From assembly GCA_035644475.1 (NCBI GenBank), contig DASQOL010000146.1:10957-74956 (forward strand): a stretch of DNA of 64,000 nucleotides. Direction: 5' to 3'. The notes beneath the pieces are model-generated. The model saw only the letters and a list, made by a program, of their open reading frames with translations, was not told the origin of the DNA and made no database searches. The translations under genes and the position numbers were made by a program. This document shows, in pieces, positions 4,049 to 55,015 of the stretch. Source of the stretch: Gammaproteobacteria bacterium (GTDB lineage Bacteria; Pseudomonadota; Gammaproteobacteria; Steroidobacterales; Rariloculaceae). Each line of letters begins with the position of its first letter. The stretch's first letter is position 1.

Positions 4049-4259
4049 TCTCGCGCTTCTCCTCATCGGTTGGCTCGGCCGGGGCGCCGTTCGCCGGCTC
4101 GGCGCTCGGCGCGTTGGGGTCGATGCGTTGGATCGGTCGCGCGGAGTCGGGGAGGCTCAACGGGCCGCGTTGGCCGCAGCCGCCGGTCACGGCCGCCGCC
4201 GCGAGCAGGGAGGCACAGAGGGCGCGCTGCCAGCGCCGTTCCGTCACCCCTTTCGTCAC
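4038..4259 (-). CDS. small lipoprotein, LptM/YifL-like
   Basis: 73-aa ORF with a signal peptide and lipobox LLAAAAVTGGC. It is followed by GQRGPLSLP, which resembles the CG-x-KGPLYLP signature of YifL/LptM. The GTG start overlaps the argH stop (GTGA). Confidence 0.6.
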   Translation of the reverse strand: MTKGVTERRWQRALCASLLAAAAVTGGCGQRGPLSLPDSARPIQRIDPNAPSAEPANGAPAEPTDEEKRENGR

Positions 4260-5449
4260 GATTCCTCACCGCGCAAGCGTGCCGCGACGCGCCGGTAGGC
4301 CTCCCGGAACGGCAGGCCTTCCTTGACGACGAGCTCGTTCGCTTGCTCGGCCGCATGGAGCTCCGGGCCGAGCTCGATCTTGTCGGGCTGGAAGCGCACG
4401 CCGGGCAGCGCATGCGCCATGATCGCGAGCACGTCCTCCGCGAGGTCGATGCTGCGGAATAGCGGCGCTTTGAGCCGCTGCAAGTCGCGGTGATAGCCGG
4501 AGGTGAGCTTGGCCGTGATCGACAGCGCCTCTTGAAGCGCGCCCGTGATCGTCGCGGGCGCGGCGCGCACGAGCTCGAACACGTCGGGATTGCGCTTCTG
4601 CGGCATGATCGACGAGCCCGTCGTCATCTCCGCGGGCAACGCCACGTACGCGAACTCGCTGGTATAGAAGAGCAGCAGGTCGGCCGCGAGCCGGCTCAGG
4701 TCGCCGAGCAGCACCGCGAGCTCGAAGATCAGGGACGCTTCCGCCTTGCCGCGGGAGAGCTGCACTGCGGTGACCGGCTCCTGCGTGCGCTCGAAGCCCA
4801 ACGCGGCGCGGGTCGCCTCCCGGTCTAGCCCAAGGCCCGGAACGCCGTAACCCGCGGCGGAGCCGAGCGGGTTGAGCTCGGTGCGCGCGTGCACGCGCAG
4901 GAGCGCGGCGCGGTCGTCCTCGATCTCGGTGGCGAAGCCGCGGGCCCACAGCGCGACCGAGCTCGGCATCGCGGGTTGCATGTGCGTGTAGCCCGGCAGC
5001 GCGATCGCGCCCTGCTCGGTGGCGACGTGCTCGAGCGCGTCTTTGACGCGGGTGGTCGCCGTCGCGAGCTCGGTGATCGCATCGCGCAGGTACAGCCGCA
5101 GCGCGGCGAGCACCTGGTCGTTGCGCGAGCGGCCGAGATGCACGCGGCCGCCGGTGGCGCCGATCCGCTCGATCAAGCGCCGCTCGAGCGCGCTATGCAC
5201 GTCCTCGTCGGCGAGCTCGATACGCCACTCCCCTGCGGCGTGCGCGTCGGCGAGCGCCTGCAGGCCGCCGCAGATCGCGGCCGTGTCGGCCGACGTGAGG
5301 AGACCCTGCTTCTGCAGCATCCGCGCGTGCGCGATTGACGCGCGCACGTCGTAGCCGACGAGCCGCCCGTCGAGCTTGTGATCTTCGCCGGCCGTGAAAC
5401 GCAGAATGCGCTCATCGAGCGGCACGCCTTTGTCCCAGAGCCGCGGCAT
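4256..5449 (-). CDS. argH: argininosuccinate lyase (short C-terminus)
   Basis: This is the internal ATG of the 614-aa track ORF, starting MPRLWDKG. It has the fumarate-lyase signature GSSIMPQKRNPD and HLGRSRNDQV. Length is 397 aa. Start is 5 nt downstream of the argB stop. Confidence 0.93.
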   Translation of the reverse strand: MPRLWDKGVPLDERILRFTAGEDHKLDGRLVGYDVRASIAHARMLQKQGLLTSADTAAICGGLQALADAHAAGEWRIELADEDVHSALERRLIERIGATGGRVHLGRSRNDQVLAALRLYLRDAITELATATTRVKDALEHVATEQGAIALPGYTHMQPAMPSSVALWARGFATEIEDDRAALLRVHARTELNPLGSAAGYGVPGLGLDREATRAALGFERTQEPVTAVQLSRGKAEASLIFELAVLLGDLSRLAADLLLFYTSEFAYVALPAEMTTGSSIMPQKRNPDVFELVRAAPATITGALQEALSITAKLTSGYHRDLQRLKAPLFRSIDLAEDVLAIMAHALPGVRFQPDKIELGPELHAAEQANELVVKEGLPFREAYRRVAARLRGEES

Positions 5450-5454
5450 CGCGT

Positions 5455-6456
5455 TCAGCTCGTCTGCCGCCCGGACGGCGGCGAAGCCTTCGACGACTTG
5501 CCGGGGGACGACTCGCCGGGGGACGACTGCTCCTCGGGGCTCAGGTGCTCGACGTCGTTGACCACCAGCGTGCCCGTGCCCTCGTTGGTGAACACCTCGA
5601 GCAGCAGGCTGTCGGGCTGCGAATACGAGATCACGTGCACGCGCGGTACGCCGCCCGAAAGCGCGCGCTCGATCGCGGCGATCTTCGGCAGCATGCCGCC
5701 CGAGATCTTGCCTTCCTCGCGGAGCTTGCGCAGGCCCGCGCGATCGACGTACGAGACCAGCGAGCGCGGATCGTCGAGCGACTCGAGAATCCCCGGCACG
5801 CCGGTAGCGAGCACGAACTTCTCGGCTTTCAGCTCGCAAGCGATCGCGGCGGCGACGGTGTCGGCGTTGATGTTGAGCAGCGTGCCTTGGTCGTCGGACG
5901 AGAGCGGGCTCACGATCGGCACGAGGTCGTTGTCGAGCTGCTTCACGAGGATGCTCGCGTCGATCCCGTGGATGTCGCCGACGAAGCCGTAGTCCACGGT
6001 CTCGCCGTTGTCGCGCTGCACCGGCGGACGCCGCTGCGCCTTGATGAGGCCGCCGTCCACGCCGCTGATGCCGATCGCCGGGATCCCGAGCGCGCGGCAC
6101 ATCGCCACGATCCGGGTGTTGATCTCGCCGTTCAGCACCATCGTCGATACCTCGAGCGTCGCGGCGTCGGTGACGCGGCGGCCCTCGACCATCGTGGTGG
6201 CGAGGCCCAGCCGCTTCGACAGCTGCGTCGACTGCGGCCCGCCGCCGTGCACGACGACCACGCGGATACCGACCTGGTGGAGGATGCCGATCTGCTCGAG
6301 CAGCGCGCGCGTGTTCTCCGGCGAGATGAACGCGTCGCCGCCGGCCTTGAGCACGAAGGTCTTGCGCTTGTACACGCGCAGATACGGCACCGCGTGCCGC
6401 AACGCGGTGACCACGATCGCACGCTCGTTGCTGGTGAGTCGAGTCATGACGGTCAT
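5455..6456 (-). CDS. argB: acetylglutamate kinase
   Basis: 333-aa ORF with the amino-acid kinase fold motifs FVLKAGGDAF, VVVHGGGPQ and LNINADT. It carries a Ser/Pro-rich C-terminal tail. Confidence 0.92.
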   Translation of the reverse strand: MTVMTRLTSNERAIVVTALRHAVPYLRVYKRKTFVLKAGGDAFISPENTRALLEQIGILHQVGIRVVVVHGGGPQSTQLSKRLGLATTMVEGRRVTDAATLEVSTMVLNGEINTRIVAMCRALGIPAIGISGVDGGLIKAQRRPPVQRDNGETVDYGFVGDIHGIDASILVKQLDNDLVPIVSPLSSDDQGTLLNINADTVAAAIACELKAEKFVLATGVPGILESLDDPRSLVSYVDRAGLRKLREEGKISGGMLPKIAAIERALSGGVPRVHVISYSQPDSLLLEVFTNEGTGTLVVNDVEHLSPEEQSSPGESSPGKSSKASPPSGRQTS

Positions 6457-6492
6457 CCTTTCAGCATTCCTTTTTTCATCGTTCCCCCTTCA

Positions 6493-7500
6493 TCATTCCC
6501 CCTTCATCATTCGATACACGACGGCCATCTGCACCACCATGCGGTTGCGCGCCTCCGGGATCACAATGCTGCGCGGGCCGTCCAAGATGCGGTCCGCGAC
6601 CACGACGCCGCGGCGCACCGGCAGGCAGTGCATGAACTTACAATCCGCTCGTGCGTTGGAGAACCACGGCTCGTCGACGCACCAGGTGCCGACGAGCTCC
6701 TCGCGCAGCGCCTGATCGCCGAGCTTGTCGCCGTAGTGGCGCGTGGACGAATACGACTTCGCGTAGATCACGTGCGCCCCTTCCATCGCTTCGCGCCGGT
6801 CGGTCGTCTCGCGCACGCTGCCCCCGGACTCCGCCGCGGCCTTGCGCGCTCGCTCCATGATCGCGGGCGGCAGCTCGAAGCCGGGCGGCCGGAGATGCAC
6901 CACGTCCATGCCACGCTTCGCGGCCATGTGGATCGTCGCCGCCGGCACCGCGAGCGGCAAGGCTTTCGGATGATACGCCCACGACAGCACGAACTTGCCC
7001 TTGTTGGCGGGGATTGCCATGTCGTCGAGCGTTTTCCAGTCGGCGAGGCTCTGGCACGGATGGTCGATCGCCGACTCCATGTTGATCCACGGTTTGTCGA
7101 TCAGCGAGGTCAGTGCCTGGAAGTCCTTGTCGGCCAAGTCGTGCGCGAGGTCGCGGCGCTCGGCGAACGCGCGCACGCCCATCGCGTCGCCGTACGACGC
7201 GATCACCGGGATCGCCTCGCGCACGTGCTCGGCGGCCATGCCGTCCATCACGATGCCGTAGCGCGACTCGAGGCCGTGGATCGACATCTCCGGCGAGATC
7301 ACGAACGCGCCGCCGCCGAGCCGGATCATTGCCGCCTGGAACGACGACAGCGTGCGCAGCGACGGGCTCAGGAACAGCAACGACAGCACCTTGCCCTCGA
7401 GCGCGCGCGGCTCGGGATGTTTGTCGAGCCTCGCGGCGAGCGCGATGAGGTTGTGAATCTCCTCGCGCGAGAAGTCGGCGAGATCGTTAAAGTGGCGCAT
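6493..7500 (-). CDS. argF': N-acyl-L-ornithine carbamoyltransferase (AOTC/SOTC type, not canonical OTC)
   Basis: 335 aa. It has SPSLRT in place of STRTR, plus HPCQSLAD, SWAYHPKALP and HCLPVRR. It has no DxxxSMG ornithine loop. By hand it aligns along its whole length with my recollection of the Xanthomonas AOTC. Confidence 0.85.
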   Translation of the reverse strand: MRHFNDLADFSREEIHNLIALAARLDKHPEPRALEGKVLSLLFLSPSLRTLSSFQAAMIRLGGGAFVISPEMSIHGLESRYGIVMDGMAAEHVREAIPVIASYGDAMGVRAFAERRDLAHDLADKDFQALTSLIDKPWINMESAIDHPCQSLADWKTLDDMAIPANKGKFVLSWAYHPKALPLAVPAATIHMAAKRGMDVVHLRPPGFELPPAIMERARKAAAESGGSVRETTDRREAMEGAHVIYAKSYSSTRHYGDKLGDQALREELVGTWCVDEPWFSNARADCKFMHCLPVRRGVVVADRILDGPRSIVIPEARNRMVVQMAVVYRMMKGE

Positions 7501-8683
7501 CGGTCAAGTCCTCCAGGGCGGCGGCCAGTGTCTGCACGTGCTCGGTTGTAAGGATCAACGGCGGCAGCAACCGCAGCACGTGCGGGTCGGCGCTGGTGCC
7601 GGTCAAGATGTCGCGGTCGAGCAGCGCGTCGCGAACCGCCGCGGCCTTGGGCCTAGTGCGGAGCCCGACGAGGAAGCCCTTGCCCTGCACGCCCACGACC
7701 GGACCGACGACGCACTTCGCGCGGATCGCGGCATGCGTCTCGCGGACGTTCGCGAGCAGGTTCTCGCTGCGGATCGCCTCGATGACGGTCTTGATCGCCG
7801 CGCAAGCCACCGGTCCGCCGCCGAACGTCGTGCCGAGCGCGCCGGCCTTGAGCGACTTCGCGATCTCGTGCGGCAGCAGCACCGCACCGCATGGAAAGCC
7901 GCCGCCGAGCCCCTTTGCGACCGTGAGCAGGTCGGGGCGCACCTTGTAGAGCTGCGCGCCGAAGGGCTCGCCGAGCCTGCCCATCCCGGTCTGCACCTCG
8001 TCCAGGATCAGGAGCGCGCCCGCGCGGTCGCAGGCCGCGCGGGCCGCGTGCAGGAACTCCGGCGCGAAATCGAACGCGCCGGCGAGGCCTTGCACCGGCT
8101 CGACGATGACGCCGGCGGTGCTCGAGTCGACGGCTGCATTGAGCGCGGCGATGTCGTTGCGCGGCACGAACTGCACATCGAACGGCGTGCGCGGGAAGCC
8201 GTACCACGACTCCTTCGCGCCCCAGGTAACCGCCGACGCGGCCGCGGTGCGGCCGTGGAAGCTCTGCTCCATCGCGACGATCTTCGCGCGGCCCGTGAGC
8301 TTGAGCGCGAGCCTTAGCGCGTTCTCGTTGGCCTCGGCGCCGCTGTTGATGAAGAACACCTTGTCGAGCCCCGGCGGGCCGAAGGCGGCCAAAGCTTCGG
8401 CGGCTTCGTCGCGCACGCGAAGCGGCAGCGCGTTCGTCTGGAACACGAGCTCGCGGCTCGCGCGCGCCAGCGTCTCCGACAACTTTGGATGGCCGTAGCC
8501 GAGCGCAGCGACCGCGTGTCCGCCGTAGAAGTCGAGCACCCTGCGACCCGCCGCGTCCTCGAGATAGACGCCCTGCCCGCGGACGGGCGTGAACGGCAAC
8601 AGCGAGTAGACCTCGTTCAAGTGTGCCGCGGAGTCCGACCCCTGGGGGTCTGCCCCTATTTTCATGACCTTCATCAGAGCCAT
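7487..8683 (-). CDS. argD: acetyl/succinyl-ornithine aminotransferase
   Basis: Class III PLP aminotransferase with FINSGAEANE, LILDEVQTGMGRLG and TVAKGLGGG. The start is ambiguous: ATG at 8683, 8674 or 8665. The 3' end overlaps the argF' start by 14 nt. Confidence 0.9.
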   Translation of the reverse strand: MALMKVMKIGADPQGSDSAAHLNEVYSLLPFTPVRGQGVYLEDAAGRRVLDFYGGHAVAALGYGHPKLSETLARASRELVFQTNALPLRVRDEAAEALAAFGPPGLDKVFFINSGAEANENALRLALKLTGRAKIVAMEQSFHGRTAAASAVTWGAKESWYGFPRTPFDVQFVPRNDIAALNAAVDSSTAGVIVEPVQGLAGAFDFAPEFLHAARAACDRAGALLILDEVQTGMGRLGEPFGAQLYKVRPDLLTVAKGLGGGFPCGAVLLPHEIAKSLKAGALGTTFGGGPVACAAIKTVIEAIRSENLLANVRETHAAIRAKCVVGPVVGVQGKGFLVGLRTRPKAAAVRDALLDRDILTGTSADPHVLRLLPPLILTTEHVQTLAAALEDLTDAPL

Positions 8684-24323: not shown

Positions 24324-25406
24324 CTATTCGGGCAGTGACTCCGCGGGCGACTCCGTGTCGCCGGGGCCGGGCTTCGAGAGGCCGTGCTTGCGCAGCAGGC
24401 TGCGGAGCTGGTGGTAACTCAGGCCGAGCAACTTCGCCGCGGTAGTCTGCTTGAATTGCGCGCGCTCGAGCGCGCGTCGCAGCACGCTGCACTCGAAATT
24501 GGTCACGGCGGAGCGGAAATCCGGCGGCACTTCGTGGTCGTTCGCCGCCGCGACCGGGCGCGGCTCCGCTTCGGCGGCAGTCTCGCGTGGTGGCGGCGGC
24601 GCGTACGGCGATGCGAACGGATCGAACAGGATTAGGTTGATGGGCTTGGCCGCGTCGTCGGAGCGGTAGACGCTGCGCTCGACCGCGTTCTTGAGCTCGC
24701 GGACGTTGCCCGGCCACGCGTAGCCCAGCAACGCGGCCTTCGCGTCGCTGGTGAATCCCGGGAAGAACGGCCGCTTGAGCTCGCTCGTGACATTGACCCC
24801 GAAGTGATACGCGAGCGTGTCAATGTCCTCGGGGCGGGCGCGCAGCGGCGGCACGTGGATCACGTCGAACGCGAGGCGATCGAGCAGGTCCGCCCGGAAC
24901 CGCCCGATCTCGGCGAGCCGTGGGAGATTTTCGTTGGTCGCGCCGACGATCCGGACGTCCGTCGAAATAGTCTCCGAGCCGCCGACGCGCTGGAACTCGC
25001 CGTACTCGATAGCTCTCAAGATCTTTTCCTGCATGCGCGGCGGGATCGTGCCGAGCTCGTCGAGCACGAGCGTGCCGCCGTCCGCTTGCTCGAACCGGCC
25101 GATGTGCGTGCGCGTCGCACCGGTGAACGCGCCGGCTTGGTGGCCGAACAGCTCCGTTTCGAGCAGCGTCTCCGTCAGCGCCGCGCAATTGACCTTGACC
25201 AGTGGCTGCTCCCAACGCTCCGACAGATAGTGCAGCCGGGAGGCGATCAGCTCCTTGCCGGTACCGCGCTCGCCGATGACCAGCACCGGCTTTATGAGCT
25301 TCGCCGCGCGCGAGACGTGCTCGAGCATCGCGAGGAAGGAAGGCGCTTCGCCGATCAGAGCAATGCTTTCAGGGGTCGGGGCCGTCGCGGTTGCCAAAGT
25401 CGTCAA
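24324..25406 (-). CDS. pspF: sigma-54-dependent activator PspF
   Basis: 360 aa. AAA+ domain only, with no receiver domain. Motifs are GERGTGKE, GAFTGA and a C-terminal HTH. Divergent from pspA. Confidence 0.9.
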   Translation of the reverse strand: MTTLATATAPTPESIALIGEAPSFLAMLEHVSRAAKLIKPVLVIGERGTGKELIASRLHYLSERWEQPLVKVNCAALTETLLETELFGHQAGAFTGATRTHIGRFEQADGGTLVLDELGTIPPRMQEKILRAIEYGEFQRVGGSETISTDVRIVGATNENLPRLAEIGRFRADLLDRLAFDVIHVPPLRARPEDIDTLAYHFGVNVTSELKRPFFPGFTSDAKAALLGYAWPGNVRELKNAVERSVYRSDDAAKPINLILFDPFASPYAPPPPRETAAEAEPRPVAAANDHEVPPDFRSAVTNFECSVLRRALERAQFKQTTAAKLLGLSYHQLRSLLRKHGLSKPGPGDTESPAESLPE

Positions 25407-31373: not shown

Positions 31374-31595
31374 GAAGGTCTCCGCAAGGATGGCCAAAGG
31401 TAGCCGAGCCGGTGCCGCCGCGCGAGAACGAGCTTCACGCGGCGGCCAATCGCCGTGCCGCGGCAACTATTGACCGCTTATGTCAGGGCGACGCGGTTCA
31501 CGGTCGGCCCGCCGGGGCCCACCGCGCCTCGGGCGGCCTGCCTTGGCACGCTCGTTGCTTGAGTGCGCGCAGGCTTGGAAGGCAGGAACGGTCCC

Positions 31596-48809: not shown

Positions 48810-48876
48810 CCCTTACGCAGTCCGGAGGTGATGCATTACCTTGCCGGCATTGCGTCCCTATGCTGGACTGTTTCGT

Positions 48877-49749
48877 ATGAACCGGGGCCGTTCCAGCGTC
48901 ATGGCGCTCGCCGCGATCGTCGTTGCCGGCGCGTTGGCCGCTTGTGAGCGCTCGTCCCCGCCGACGCCCGGCGCAGCGGCCGTCGAGCAGCGCCGCGCCG
49001 CGCCGACGCCGCGGCTCGAGGCCCCGGCACGGGCCGCCGTGCTGGAGCAGCAGCTCGCCTACGGCGAGGCCAAGAGCCGAAATCTCGTGGGCTTTTTGGC
49101 GATGCCGGCCGACGCCGCCGAGCCGCTGCCCGCGGTGATCGTGATCCACGAATGGTGGGGCCTCAACAACGAGATCAAGACGCTCACGCGCCGGCTCGCC
49201 GCAGAGGGTTACGTGGCGCTCGCGGTCGACCTGTATGGTGGCGCCACAGCGACGACGCCCGCTGACGCGGAGAAGCTGATGACAGGGGTCTTCACCGATC
49301 CCGAAGCCGCACGCGCCAACGTGCGCCAAGCCTACGAATACCTCGAGAAGTATGCGTTTGCGCCGCGGATTGGCAGCATCGGCTGGGCGTTCGGCGGGAG
49401 CTGGTCGTTGGAGGCGGCGTTGCTGCTGCCGAATCAGCTCGACGCGACGGTGACCTACTACGGCCCGCTCGTGACGGATGCGGCGAAGCTGCAGCCCATC
49501 GACGCTCCGATCCTCGGCCTGTACGGAGCCTTGGACGAGAGCATCCCGGCGCGCGACGTCATCGCCTTCCGGGCGCTCCTCACCAATCAGCTGCACAAGA
49601 ACGCGAAGATCGTGATCTATCCGAACGCCAGGCACGCGTTCGCCAGCGTTGGGGACGGAGATTACAACGCGGAAGCCGCGGCGCAGGCTTGGAGCGAAAC
49701 GCTCGCGTTCCTGAACGAGAACCTGAAGCTGAAGGCGGCGCGGCCCTAG
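48877..49749 (+). CDS. dienelactone hydrolase family lipoprotein
   Basis: Lipobox GALAAC, then VIVIHEWWGLN and GWAFGG. Confidence 0.82.
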   Translation: MNRGRSSVMALAAIVVAGALAACERSSPPTPGAAAVEQRRAAPTPRLEAPARAAVLEQQLAYGEAKSRNLVGFLAMPADAAEPLPAVIVIHEWWGLNNEIKTLTRRLAAEGYVALAVDLYGGATATTPADAEKLMTGVFTDPEAARANVRQAYEYLEKYAFAPRIGSIGWAFGGSWSLEAALLLPNQLDATVTYYGPLVTDAAKLQPIDAPILGLYGALDESIPARDVIAFRALLTNQLHKNAKIVIYPNARHAFASVGDGDYNAEAAAQAWSETLAFLNENLKLKAARP

Positions 49750-49921
49750 GCGTGGCGGCGAAAAAAAAGAGGGCCGGGTGCAAGAACGTCCATATTCTTC
49801 AGTGCGAAGACATGTCCCTGTTCGCTGCCGGAAACCCCGGCCCCCCGAGTGACGGCCGTCCGACTCGGCCCAGCGGACCTCCACGGGGGGAGGAGTGGGG
49901 TCCGCTTTTCCTGACTACCGC

Positions 49922-50200
49922 TTAGCCTCGCGCGTGCAGCTCGCTGCTTGCGACCTCGAGCTTCGGCGCGGTAGCGCGCCTGAGATCCGCATCGACGGTC
50001 ACCTTGATTTGCTCGCTAACCGCGCGCATGTAGCTCTCGACCTCGGCCCGATACGCCGCCGGCGTTGCTCTCACGCCGATGGTCGCTGCGGTTCCGTAAA
50101 CAACTAACTCTTCGGTGGCTGAGGCCTGCTGAGCGAGCAGGCCGGCCGCCAGTCCGACGACCAGGGTTGCACCTGGGGTCAGAAATTTGCGTGTGGCCAT
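49922..50200 (-). CDS. small secreted protein, unknown function
   Basis: 92 aa. Signal peptide MATRKFLTPGATLVVGLAAGLLAQQASA, Shine-Dalgarno AGGA 9 nt upstream, and a sigma-54 promoter upstream. Confidence 0.65.
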   Translation of the reverse strand: MATRKFLTPGATLVVGLAAGLLAQQASATEELVVYGTAATIGVRATPAAYRAEVESYMRAVSEQIKVTVDADLRRATAPKLEVASSELHARG

Positions 50201-50273
50201 ACTCTCATCCTTTCGTTACGATTTTCCGACAACCCGATCTTCAATCGACCGGAAATCACTTGCAGCTACATAT

Positions 50274-50288
50274 GCACGGTACGTGCCA
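50274..50288 (-). promoter_or_regulatory. sigma-54 promoter
   Basis: The minus strand reads TTGGCACG-TACC-GTGCAT, against the consensus TGGCACG-N4-TTGCW. It lies 74 nt upstream of the ATG at 50200. Confidence 0.7.
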
Positions 50289-50336
50289 ATTGCAAGACAT
50301 AGTCAAAACAACGAGTTACATCACATATACAGCTCT

Positions 50337-50389
50337 CGGTATTCCGTGAATTACGGATTTCCGTTGTCATAGCCTACGGTATTCCGTAA
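50337..50389. promoter_or_regulatory. three (A)CGG-N4-CCG(T) palindromic sites, candidate enhancer (UAS)
   Basis: CGGTATTCCG at 50337-46, ACGGATTTCCGT at 50353-64 and TACGGTATTCCGTA at 50376-89. They lie 50-115 bp upstream of the sigma-54 promoter and just before the activator gene. Confidence 0.5.
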
Positions 50390-50398
50390 ACTAGCCGC

Positions 50399-52222
<1,824 letters not shown>

Positions 52223-52364: not shown

Positions 52365-52730
52365 ATGTCGCAGCTGGCCGAGCGATTCGCCGAAGCGGTT
52401 CGGACTCTCGTGAGCGACGGACCGATCAAGCAGCGCCTGAGTCGCGCGTATACCGAGAACCTCGAGGGACTCGACCAGGCGGAGTTGCCCGCCGGCGTTC
52501 GCCGGGAGTTCAGCGACCTCGAGGCCGCCTTGAGCCGCATCGCTCCCGTGGGCAACGAGACCCGCGTGCGCGCCAACGTGCAGAAGATGTCGCCGGCGGA
52601 AGCCGGCGATCACGCGAGCACCATCGTCAAGCTTTACGTCGAGCTCATGGGCCAAGCGGGCCGCGCCGAGCCCCTCAAGGTTGTCACGACTTCCAAGAAG
52701 ACCCCGCGCTACCTCGCAAGTCGCTCCTGA
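52365..52730 (+). CDS. hypothetical protein
   Basis: Internal ATG (MSQLAERFAEAV), 121 aa. High GC3, no motif recognised. Confidence 0.6.
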   Translation: MSQLAERFAEAVRTLVSDGPIKQRLSRAYTENLEGLDQAELPAGVRREFSDLEAALSRIAPVGNETRVRANVQKMSPAEAGDHASTIVKLYVELMGQAGRAEPLKVVTTSKKTPRYLASRS

Positions 52731-52822: not shown

Positions 52823-55015
52823 ATGAGCATGCCGGGGCTTTCGATTCCCAGGAACGCCAATGCCGACACTGCGAGGGCCGTCGGCGACGGCTACGCGCCT
52901 TATGGTCAATTGGTCAAGATGCTCCTGCCGAGCGCCGGCAGCATTGCGATCTACGACGCGGCGCACGAAGTCGTCTGGTGCTCCGACGGCTATGCACGTC
53001 CCGATCTTCGCGCGCTGCTCGATCGGCTGACCGCCGCGGGCCCCGAGACGCTCGCCGGACGCGGCAGCGTCGAAATGACCGCGGCCGGAGTGCCGGCGTT
53101 CGTCGCGGCCTTGCGGACGGAGCTGAGCCGGCCGCTGGGTGCACTAGTCCTCGAGCTGCGCAGCGACCAAAGCCCGCGGCAGACGGCGTCGCTGCTCTCG
53201 GGCCTGCTACGGCCGGTCTTGGACTGCCTCGAGAGCCGCCTGAACCTGGAGAACACGCTGCGCACGGGCGAGCGCGACGGCGCCAGCGACGGCGTCGAGC
53301 TGCTGCTGACCGTCGACGAGGACGACCGCGAGGACGCGAGCGCCCTGCGGCGCCTGCTCCAGCAGTGCGTCGCGGATTTGGGCTGCGTGCTGGGCGCGCT
53401 TTCGATTCCCGATAAGAATCTTGCGATCTCGTGCGCGCCCGACGACTCGATCAAGACCTCGCAGCTGCTCGACCGAACGCAAAGGCACCTGCTGGCTTGG
53501 GCCCAGCTCAACAATCGACCGATGGTCGTCAATCGCGTCGGCAGCGCGTCCGAAGTGGCGCCGTACAAGATCCTGAGCTGCCCGATCCGAGACCTGCAGA
53601 ACCGCGTCGTGGGCATCGTCGCGCTGTTCCGCTTGACGACCGCAGCCGATTTCGAGCTGCGCGATATCCGAATCCTCGAGTTCGTAAGCCGCAAGACGGT
53701 GAGCGTGCTCCGCAGCCAGCACGACGGGTTGACCGGGTTGATCAACCGTCTGATCTTCGAGCGCCGCGTTCGGGCGCGGCTCGACGCGTCCGCCACCGAT
53801 CGGCACGCGCTGCTGTACGTCGACATCGACAAGCTCGAGGCCATCAACCAGGCGTTCGGCCTGCACGCCGGCGACGAGGTGATCCAGCGCGTGGCCGAGG
53901 TCGTGTCCCGCGCCGCGGGCGAGAACGCGCTCGTGAGCCGCATCGGCGGAGACCGCTTCGCAGTGTTTCTCGCGCAGCCCAACGCCGCGCAAGCCGAAGA
54001 GGTCGGCTCGACGATCTTCGACGCGACGACGCGCTTGGTATACATGAGCGGCGCGGACACCGTGCCCGTGTCGGTGAGCATCGGCGTCGTCGGCGCGTCG
54101 CAGCGCGATCGCGTCGGACATCTGCTCGCGTGCGCGGAGCTCGCATCCAAGCGCGCGAAGCAGCAGGGACGCAGCCAGATCGTGTTGCACGACGAGGACG
54201 TCGCTCTGCTGCCCGCGCGGCGCCGCGAGACGCTCGCGTCGGAAAGCCTGCAGGAAGCGTTCAAGACCAACGATTTTCGGCTCGAATCGCAGCCGATTGT
54301 CGGTCTGCGCGCGCCCGAGGGCGACCCGCTCGCCCACGAAATCTTCATCCGCATGCGCAACGGAGCTGGCGAGCTGATCGCAGCCGACAAGTTCCTCGCC
54401 GCGGCGGAGCGCTACGGGCTGCTGCCGGCGCTCGACCGGTGGGTGCTTTGCACGCTGCTCGACGTCGTGAAAGCGTCGCCGCCCGAGGCCTATCGCTGCT
54501 TGACCGTCAACGTGTCCGCGCAATCGTTGGCGAGCGGCAAGTACGCAAGCTTCGCCCTCGAGCAGATCGAGCGAGCAGGCCTGTCGCCCTCGATGTTTTG
54601 CTTCGAGCTCAGCGAGTCGGCGGCCGTGCATCGGCTCGTGGAGGCGGAGCGGCTGATCCGCGAGCTCACGGCGGCCGGCAGCAAGATCGCGCTCGACGAC
54701 TTCGGCTACGGCATGAGCTCGCTCGCCCATCTGAAGCGGTTGCCGGTCCAATTTCTGAAGATCGACGGCCGCTTCGTCCGCAGGATCCTCGACGATCGAA
54801 TCGCGGAGTCCATCGTGTCGGGGATCGCGCGCGCCGCGAAGACGCTCGGGGTCGGCCTCATCGCCGAGCACGTCGAGAGCGCCGCGCTCGCCGACAAGTT
54901 GCGCGAGCTCGACGTGGAGTACGGCCAGGGATTCTTTCTGGGGCGCCCGCGCCCGTTCGTGAAGATCAACGAGGAGCGGTCGGCGCCCGCCGCGGTCCGT
55001 ACCGGCGCCGTCTAG
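52823..55015 (+). CDS. GAF-like/GGDEF/EAL signalling protein with degenerate GGDEF (GGDRF)
   Basis: 730 aa. GGDEF domain reads RIGGDRFAVFL. EAL domain has EIFIR, DDFGYGMSSL, KIDGRFV, EHVES and QGF. Confidence 0.88.
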   Translation: MSMPGLSIPRNANADTARAVGDGYAPYGQLVKMLLPSAGSIAIYDAAHEVVWCSDGYARPDLRALLDRLTAAGPETLAGRGSVEMTAAGVPAFVAALRTELSRPLGALVLELRSDQSPRQTASLLSGLLRPVLDCLESRLNLENTLRTGERDGASDGVELLLTVDEDDREDASALRRLLQQCVADLGCVLGALSIPDKNLAISCAPDDSIKTSQLLDRTQRHLLAWAQLNNRPMVVNRVGSASEVAPYKILSCPIRDLQNRVVGIVALFRLTTAADFELRDIRILEFVSRKTVSVLRSQHDGLTGLINRLIFERRVRARLDASATDRHALLYVDIDKLEAINQAFGLHAGDEVIQRVAEVVSRAAGENALVSRIGGDRFAVFLAQPNAAQAEEVGSTIFDATTRLVYMSGADTVPVSVSIGVVGASQRDRVGHLLACAELASKRAKQQGRSQIVLHDEDVALLPARRRETLASESLQEAFKTNDFRLESQPIVGLRAPEGDPLAHEIFIRMRNGAGELIAADKFLAAAERYGLLPALDRWVLCTLLDVVKASPPEAYRCLTVNVSAQSLASGKYASFALEQIERAGLSPSMFCFELSESAAVHRLVEAERLIRELTAAGSKIALDDFGYGMSSLAHLKRLPVQFLKIDGRFVRRILDDRIAESIVSGIARAAKTLGVGLIAEHVESAALADKLRELDVEYGQGFFLGRPRPFVKINEERSAPAAVRTGAV

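Follow-up and report, generated by a model that had tools for sequence, protein, structure and literature searches.

A candidate sigma-54 circuit in uncultured soil Gammaproteobacteria with two likely outputs: a small exported protein and a conserved 3' RNA

The locus described here lies in a 64-kb stretch of gammaproteobacterial DNA (contig DASQOL010000146.1; hereafter, the window) and is centered on a small open reading frame (ORF) that encodes 92 amino acids (aa) and begins with a predicted signal peptide. The ORF diverges from a gene for an enhancer-binding protein with two PAS domains. A sigma-54 promoter, an IHF-like site and three palindromes occupy the region between both genes, and a structured RNA extends from the stop codon of the small ORF to a U-tract. 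A previous sequence-only reading of the window had viewed the locus as a sensor-activator dedicated to one small exported protein. The features named in that reading are all present, with coordinates off by only 1-2 nucleotides (nt). Elements that it did not contain are the 3' RNA, of ~160 nt, the IHF-like site, and a sigma-70-like promoter of the activator gene that overlaps the enhancer. Our best reading, to which we assign a probability of roughly 0.7, is that the unit is a dedicated sigma-54 circuit with two likely outputs, the small exported protein and an RNA derived from the 3' untranslated region (UTR). The unit appears to be real, and its regulatory interpretation largely right but incomplete, as judged from sequence comparison in one uncultured lineage.

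The comparison set was made of 22 loci, obtained by exact-protein look-up and pattern scans; the bacteria they come from are all uncultured and live in soil or sediment. In 16 distinct loci, the PAS activator gene is found in divergent orientation. Promoters were compared in 17 loci, namely those 16 and one locus (L015) that has no activator. Coordinates of the features in the window are given in Table 1.

Table 1. Features of the sigma-54 unit and its structured RNA (window coordinates; positions of palindromes and IHF-like site relative to the predicted transcription start)
Feature	Coordinates	Strand	Remarks
U-tract	49761-49768	-	RNA 3' end
Conserved structured 3' RNA, ~160 nt	49761-49921	-	small-ORF stop codon to U-tract
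Long-range helix (closing helix P3)	49836-49845 with 49769-49778	-	encloses two inner helices
SL2	49854-49870	-	loop AGUCGGA
SL1	49873-49905	-	loop CUCCUCCCCCC at 49885-49895
Small ORF, 92 aa	49922-50200	-	predicted signal peptide, ~residues 1-28
5' UTR, ~62 nt (predicted)	50201-50262	-	hairpins; fourth palindrome-like site in closest clade only
Sigma-54 promoter TGGCACGTACCGTGCA	50273-50288	-	1 mismatch to TGGCAC-N5-TTGCW
IHF-like site AAACAACGAGTTA	50306-50318	+	1 mismatch to WATCAANNNNTTR; centre ~-50, between enhancer and promoter
Proximal enhancer palindrome TCGGTATTCCGT (minus strand: ACGGAATACCGA)	50336-50347		centre ~-80
Middle enhancer palindrome ACGGATTTCCGT	50353-50364		centre ~-97
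Sigma-70-like promoter of activator (TTGTCA-17-TAAACT)	50364-50392	+	ends 6 nt before ATG
Distal enhancer palindrome ACGGTATTCCGT	50376-50387		centre ~-120
Enhancer-binding protein gene, 607 aa	50399-52222	+	PAS-PAS-Sigma54_activat-AAA_lid-HTH_8

The near-consensus sigma-54 promoter on the minus strand has its GG (50287-50286) and GC (50275-50274) dinucleotides exactly one helical turn apart, and transcription is predicted to start at about position 50262. When the loci were compared, the pattern TGGCAC-N5-[GA]TGCA was found 63-88 nt before the ATG of the small gene in 17 out of 17, including L015, whose promoter presents the same TTGGCACGCGGCGTGCAT. The claim that this is the most AT-rich intergenic region also holds, as the 200-nt windows with the lowest GC content in the 64 kb (0.445, at 50181 and 50201) are found here. 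The spacer DNA around the control sites is only 49-62% identical between loci. Other sigma-54-like matches in the window, at 6417, 25525, 31544 and 57340, were taken as chance occurrences because they lie inside likely coding regions; the match at 31544-31559 (+), TGGCACGCTCGTTGCT, is perfect.

A search of the whole window for ACGGWWWWCCGT with at most one mismatch yielded exactly three matches, all within 50336-50387. Shuffled sequences gave 0.69 matches on average, and three were reached in 1 of 100 shuffles. The consensus across loci is ACGGAAWTCCGT, of the ACGG-N4-CCGT type. Palindromes are found at conserved positions in 16/16 activator-bearing loci, and all three (~-80, -97 and -120) in 15 of them; the distal palindrome of L021 is degenerate (ATGGAATTCCGT) and falls below the scan threshold. 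Chance does not account for the motifs, because the same positions recur in every activator-bearing locus. Single CGGATTTCCG sites at 24514 and 44989 were discarded as chance since they are located inside likely coding regions. The IHF-like match (WATCAANNNNTTR, at most one mismatch) is found at the same position in 13/16 loci and is perfect in L019.

The locus without activator is informative: L015 keeps the promoter and has none of the palindromes. Hence, the palindromes appear to go with the activator, and the promoter with the small gene. Together with the 16 loci in which the small ORF and the PAS-type activator gene are paired, this co-occurrence points to the divergent gene as the likely cognate activator, as proposed in the sequence-only reading, and suggests that its product binds the palindromes.

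Two additional features of the 5' UTR deserve mention. One is a sequence at 50218-50229 (about +35 to +45; minus strand, TCGGAAAATCGT) that looks like a fourth palindrome and differs at the first base only from ACGGAAAATCGT, an accepted enhancer variant of L004 and L017. This site is present in the closest clade (the window, L001, L004, L006, L012 and L014) and absent from more distant loci. The other is that the ribosome-binding site is closely preceded by one or two hairpins in the window and in L008-L011, L016, L017, L020 and L021. Their sequences are unrelated between clades (for instance, CGAAUC/GAUUCG in L008 and ACCGAU/AUCGGU in L017), and the occurrence of unrelated hairpins at the same place suggests a conserved structural role.

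The domains of the activator fit an enhancer-binding protein: in Pfam, Sigma54_activat (PF00158) scores 245 bits, PAS_9/PAS_4 matches occur twice, and an AAA_lid_14 match and a putative C-terminal HTH of the Fis type (HTH_8, slightly under the cut-off) follow. The GAFTGA loop is present in the translation, and there is no receiver domain. The protein scores below the cut-off of all the named NCBIfam equivalogs of bacterial enhancer-binding proteins (NorR, NifA, PrdR, FhlA, RtcR, AtoC, NtrC, ZraR, PspF, TyrR and others); the best match is NorR (386.7, with a cut-off of 476), where the central domain only is aligned. In syntenic loci the activator is 85-95% identical.

The activator gene appears to have a promoter of its own, the only sigma-70-like site within 49700-50500. 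In 15/16 loci a TTGnnn-17/18-TAnnnT pattern ends 6-9 nt before the activator ATG. The middle palindrome shares its last base with the -35 hexamer, and the distal palindrome overlaps the spacer and the -10 hexamer. Since the promoter ends 6 nt from the ATG, an in-frame TAA is found 12 nt upstream and no Shine-Dalgarno sequence precedes the ATG, the activator mRNA is probably leaderless.

Downstream of the activator gene, every syntenic locus carries a gene for a protein of ~121 aa (52365-52730, +), with no match in Pfam, NCBIfam or PADLOC, which could be a partner of the activator. Genes for a GAF-GGDEF-EAL protein (52823-55015, +) and an SH3_3 protein follow. In three loci (L008, L010 and L011), which are contigs of Microflora Danica metagenome-assembled genomes, tblastn shows several genes split by frameshifts, among them the activator, DLH and amidohydrolase genes and, in L011, also the small ORF. 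Errors of long-read assembly are the most likely cause of these frameshifts.

The small ORF is a real gene, and the family to which it belongs is unannotated. Its pairwise differences by codon position (0.24/0.19/0.39) are highest at the third position, a substitution pattern of the coding type, and the strongest constraint within the ORF is found on GLAAGLLAQQASATEELVVYG. A word-indexed search detected 24 clusters of 88-93 aa with 51-97% identity. A full profile search raised the number to 114 clusters at 50% identity, nearly all of 85-100 aa and full length. All the clusters are metagenomic, and their members are either unnamed or labelled 'hypothetical'. Divergence is considerable: the small proteins of the 16 activator-bearing loci are only 25-76% identical to that of the window. 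No match was found in Pfam, NCBIfam or PADLOC, and a PDB sequence search with the small-protein profile retrieved no significant relative, the best hit being TraT (E=0.021). The protein also lacks an LTXXQ-type Pfam domain, which was the test for membership in the CpxP/Spy/ZraP family.

The signal peptide noticed in the sequence-only reading consists of a basic n-region with R4 and K5, followed by a hydrophobic core, and finishes with AQQASA|T; the protein is thus predicted to be exported. The remaining parts are a conserved EELVVYG segment, a helix and a conserved C-terminal tail that ends in RG; the family consensus consists of the signal peptide, EE.VVYG, a variable linker, FR.....Y.R.L...LK..L and P...LA..E...RG. 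AlphaFold2, run on a deep alignment, predicts one confident helix (residues 47-77, pLDDT ~96) and no globular fold, with the conserved N- and C-terminal segments extended. Most family members harbor EE[ILVM]VV[YT]G; a subclade made of L016-L018 and L020 has AE..VQKAP instead and keeps the rest of the protein. The protein of the window starts with M-A-T-R-K-F-L and several homologues have T-R-R-F/L-L. The resulting pattern, TR[KR]xFL, is close to a twin-arginine motif, so that the start is weakly Tat-like and export by Tat rather than Sec might be possible; this is a lead, not a finding.

L015 (ENA ERZ25039539 contig_3083, 4131-8350) harbors a distant family member in another neighbourhood. A PspA_IM30-hypothetical-VWA operon is divergent from the small gene, and genes for an OmpR-type regulator and a histidine kinase are found directly downstream. 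No palindromes, 3' RNA or activator are detected nearby. This neighbourhood is a weak hint at an envelope-stress theme.

When the comparison was extended past the stop codon of the small ORF, a block of ~150-165 nt was found on the same strand, with GGGGGCCGGG...CCCGGCCCUC and then seven or eight U at its end. This block is more conserved than the coding sequence in 10/10 comparisons (86% versus 66% identity in L009, and 79% versus 61% in L017), and in 9 of the 10 it is the best-conserved of all segments of the unit. Its homologues differ by insertions and deletions of 1 and 2 nt. Because these are not multiples of three, the element is not coding, and an ORF of 78 aa on the opposite strand (49689-49925, +) is ruled out. 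The database 'proteins' P0046 and P0072 (183-193 aa) are the small ORF read through into this element.

A covariance model built from the proposed structure detects the RNA exactly once in each locus (66-182 bits), with no further match in the window. The copy always starts at the stop codon of the small ORF and ends in the U-tract, on the same strand. In L019 the RNA stays with the small ORF though the neighbouring DLH gene is missing; in L015 the RNA is absent. No Rfam family was detected in 49000-51000 (E≤1), in 49730-49930 (E≤10) or in the whole window (gathering scores); the best matches are noise (mir-9338 on the palindromes, HDV ribozyme with 14 bits, sX14 with 12 bits and ar14 with 11 bits). 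The RNA is probably a second, regulatory output of the unit, an interpretation suggested by its conservation and structure. Hence, the sequence-only view of a circuit dedicated to one small exported protein stands in its regulatory part and is incomplete in the word 'one', as the transcript would run through the conserved RNA.

Support for the RNA fold comes from pairing and covariation. In an alignment fitted to the model, and therefore leaning towards the structure, 91.7% of cells are paired, versus 56.5% or less with slid partners, and compensatory changes occur in 11 pairs, versus 4.0 in shuffles (0/500 shuffles as high). As the closing helix P3 is largely invariant, it is SL1, SL2 and the inner helices that receive the strongest support. 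Three unpaired sequences are conserved, namely the SL1 loop (CUCCUCCCCCC), which is C-rich and resembles an anti-Shine-Dalgarno sequence, the SL2 loop AGUCGGA, and AUAUGGA. A local GCCGG/CCGGC hairpin (SL3) that rivals the terminator helix can be formed in 96.5% of cells; it was rejected as it shows no covariation. Within the terminator helix, the 5' strand (49836-49845) is G-rich and can pair either with 49769-49778 or with a nearby CCGGC (49827-49841 region), and insertions in L019 and L021 extend both alternative pairings. In addition, the C-run of SL1 could pair with the G-run of the terminator helix as a pseudoknot. No covariation separates these options.

Altogether, the arrangement, which agrees with textbook activation of sigma-54 promoters, and analogy with known systems suggest the following model. 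The activator would presumably sense a cytoplasmic signal directly, given the lack of a receiver domain. Activator dimers would bind the three ACGGAAWTCCGT palindromes, with three dimers making up one hexamer, and an IHF-type bend near -50 would loop the DNA and carry the hexamer to the sigma-54 holoenzyme, held in a closed complex at -24/-12. ATP hydrolysis would then remodel the closed complex and open the promoter. Bound activator should also repress its own gene, since the distal palindrome lies inside the sigma-70-like promoter, the middle one abuts it, and transcription appears to start at or next to the ATG. The sigma-54 transcript (~500 nt) is expected to be monocistronic, since DLH (48841-49749), which comes next, is convergent with it. 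Its translation would give a periplasmic protein with a mature form of ~64 aa, in which a single amphipathic helix would be flanked by the EELVVYG segment and the tail, both extended. The last ~160 nt would form a multi-helix RNA ending in an intrinsic terminator, and its most likely fate would be processing and release, or persistence, as a 3'-UTR-derived regulatory RNA. Acting in trans, the exposed C-rich loop would target other mRNAs by pairing with their G-rich ribosome-binding regions.

Several known systems share parts of this design. In qrr1-luxO, glmY-glrR and crcZ-cbrB, a sigma-54 promoter with multiple upstream sites is dedicated to an RNA regulator, and the activator is encoded next door; in qrr1-luxO the shared region gives autorepression. 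The qrr1, glmY and crcZ RNAs are, however, primary transcripts without an upstream ORF, whereas the RNA described here follows a translated ORF and has no sequence similarity to them. In zraP-zraSR, a gene for a small periplasmic protein is transcribed from a sigma-54 promoter and diverges from the activator operon. ZraR is a two-component response regulator and ZraP belongs to the CpxP family; in contrast, the activator of the unit scores 284 against the ZraR cut-off of 760, and its small protein has no Pfam match. NorR senses through a GAF domain and has GT-N7-AC sites, while the unit has a PAS-PAS sensor, ACGG-N4-CCGT sites and a target that is not a detoxification operon. Common to norR-norVW of E. 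coli and the unit are a divergent activator, a sigma-54 target promoter and three intergenic enhancer sites, and NorR requires its three sites (PMC2831303).

The likeness to cpxP/CpxQ of Enterobacteriales extends to the 3' end. There, a monocistronic gene for a small periplasmic protein is divergent from its own regulator genes, the conserved 3' UTR goes from the stop codon to an intrinsic terminator, and one transcript provides a protein arm and an RNA arm (PMC9438474); the RNA arm of the unit is a prediction. However, cpxP has a sigma-70 promoter controlled by the response regulator CpxR, in place of sigma-54 and a PAS-type AAA+ activator, and CpxQ is ~60 nt long compared with ~160 nt and five helices. 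The lack of an LTXXQ/CpxP match in Pfam and of an Rfam match indicates that there is no sequence or family relation. The cuckoo RNAs of Alphaproteobacteria (ar14, RSs0680), exemplified by ccaF1/CcsR1-4, are likewise located downstream of a small ORF, with which they are co-transcribed, depend on an alternative sigma factor, end in a terminator and harbor CCUCCUCCC anti-Shine-Dalgarno loops (PMC8034643, PMC4615179). The loop CUCCUCCCCCC shares 8/9 bases with the CCUCCUCCC motif. Cuckoo RNAs consist, however, of 2-4 adjacent hairpins, each with the motif (PMC4615179), whereas the RNA of the unit has one such hairpin and unrelated domains, and its match to ar14 (11.4 bits, E=4.3) is far from the gathering score of 58.8. 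Furthermore, the protein upstream of cuckoo RNAs is a cytoplasmic RNA-binding protein of the DUF1127 type instead of a signal-peptide protein, and the sigma factors are RpoHI/HII in Alphaproteobacteria rather than sigma-54 in a gammaproteobacterial host.

Certain observations weigh against the circuit with two outputs. The HTH_8 match of the activator (residues 552-594) scores 20.6 bits, just below the Pfam cut-off of 22. No sigma-54 promoter is obvious in L022, which at 24% identity is the most distant of the family members examined. As the syntenic loci all belong to one lineage with conserved gene order, adjacency alone proves little. Several helices of the RNA are nearly invariant, and 4 of the 10 pairs of P3 never vary, so that covariation support is uneven. 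Enclosing ~60 nt in the stem, as this terminator does, is not usual among efficient intrinsic terminators, and a competing local hairpin is possible. Lastly, the 3' RNA might do no more than stabilise the 3' end, or it might simply be an elaborate terminator.

The latter possibility would leave the exported protein as the sole product served by the promoter, with a 3' element that terminates transcription and stabilises the mRNA without a function of its own. The GC-rich helix and the U-tract that close the element fit with this explanation, and L018 has no inner helices yet keeps the closing helix and the U-tract. Furthermore, neither an RNA target nor a processing site has come to light, and the scan for targets of the C-rich loop was uninformative, as it detected within the 64-kb window only the complement of the RNA itself and a few 8-9-mers of no clear meaning. 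We nevertheless consider this explanation unlikely, because ~160 nt, five helices and invariant loops (CUCCUCCCCCC, AGUCGGA and AUAUGGA) go beyond the needs of a simple terminator, and because the protein that the element would serve is less conserved than the element itself. A 3' UTR more conserved than its gene is precisely what permitted the recognition of CpxQ (PMC9438474). That conservation might be pushed to the opposite extreme, with the RNA as the selected product and the ORF as a fast-evolving leader of little importance, or with the RNA as an independent gene that has its own promoter. The GC content at third codon positions of the small ORF, 0.72 compared with 0.78-0.94 in neighbouring genes, could be read in the same sense. 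However, the ORF shows codon-position-dependent substitution and retains its length and motifs across 114 clusters, L015 has a family member without the RNA, and conservation of the RNA begins right after the stop codon, with no conserved promoter in the 3' end of the ORF, which is itself poorly conserved. An RNA of such pre-eminence seems thus very unlikely.

If the RNA is regulatory, its mode of action also admits more than one explanation. Titration of a CsrA/RsmA-type protein through GGA motifs, in place of base-pairing through the C-rich loop, might be considered, as conserved GGA sequences occupy predicted unpaired positions: UCGGA in the SL2 loop, A(N)GGA at a junction, and AUAUGGA(U/C)GU. 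The latter resembles the GGAUGU core of the CsrA consensus obtained by SELEX (systematic evolution of ligands by exponential enrichment). There are, however, only about four such motifs, when, according to our estimate, chance alone would give roughly three GGA in 160 nt with such a composition; no Csr/Rsm family of Rfam is matched, and the best-conserved loop is C-rich, not GGA. Titration is therefore rather improbable. The most skeptical view, that the motifs are chance or relic and that the small ORF has no sigma-54 expression, can invoke the sigma-54-like matches in coding regions of the window, one of them perfect (31544), so that the pattern alone is not diagnostic. Such a view is already disfavoured, and to us scarcely credible, since promoter, palindromes and IHF-like site are kept at fixed positions in loci with small proteins that are 25-50% identical and spacers that are ~50-60% identical.

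A bolder speculation concerns what the protein and the RNA might do together. The EE[IV]VVYG segment resembles TonB boxes, stretches of the EE[IV]VVTG type that go from acidic to hydrophobic right behind the signal peptide, a resemblance that is, again, a lead rather than a finding; no TonB-dependent receptor with a comparable N-terminus was detected in the 64-kb window, and the subclade of L016-L018 and L020 has lost the motif. If the small protein presented a TonB-box-like strand and the 3' RNA shut down translation of its targets, both arms might act on envelope uptake, and the unit would be a sigma-54 counterpart of the Cpx design, with its protein and RNA arms, under a PAS sensor. EELVVYG, placed at the mature N-terminus, would compete with outer-membrane receptors for TonB, and the anti-Shine-Dalgarno loop would block translation of target mRNAs. 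The mutually exclusive RNA pairings, namely the local GCCGG/CCGGC hairpin and the long-range terminator helix, would add a switch. This joint scenario is a long shot, and we believe that it is very probably wrong as a whole.

Returning to the dedicated circuit with two likely outputs, its architecture is ordinary: sigma-54 promoters, enhancer-binding proteins and small RNAs derived from 3' UTRs are each well known. To our knowledge, however, no circuit has been described in which sigma-54 and a PAS-type activator control one transcript that is the source of a small exported protein and of a conserved structured RNA alike. What is new is an unannotated family of ~90-aa proteins, predicted to be exported and made of more than 100 clusters at 50% identity, together with an RNA that is absent from Rfam. 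Both families occur in abundant uncultured Gammaproteobacteria of soil. The full specification of the promoter architecture makes it possible to rebuild it in a surrogate host. As the unit also illustrates, conservation in a 'small protein' locus can be highest at the 3' end.

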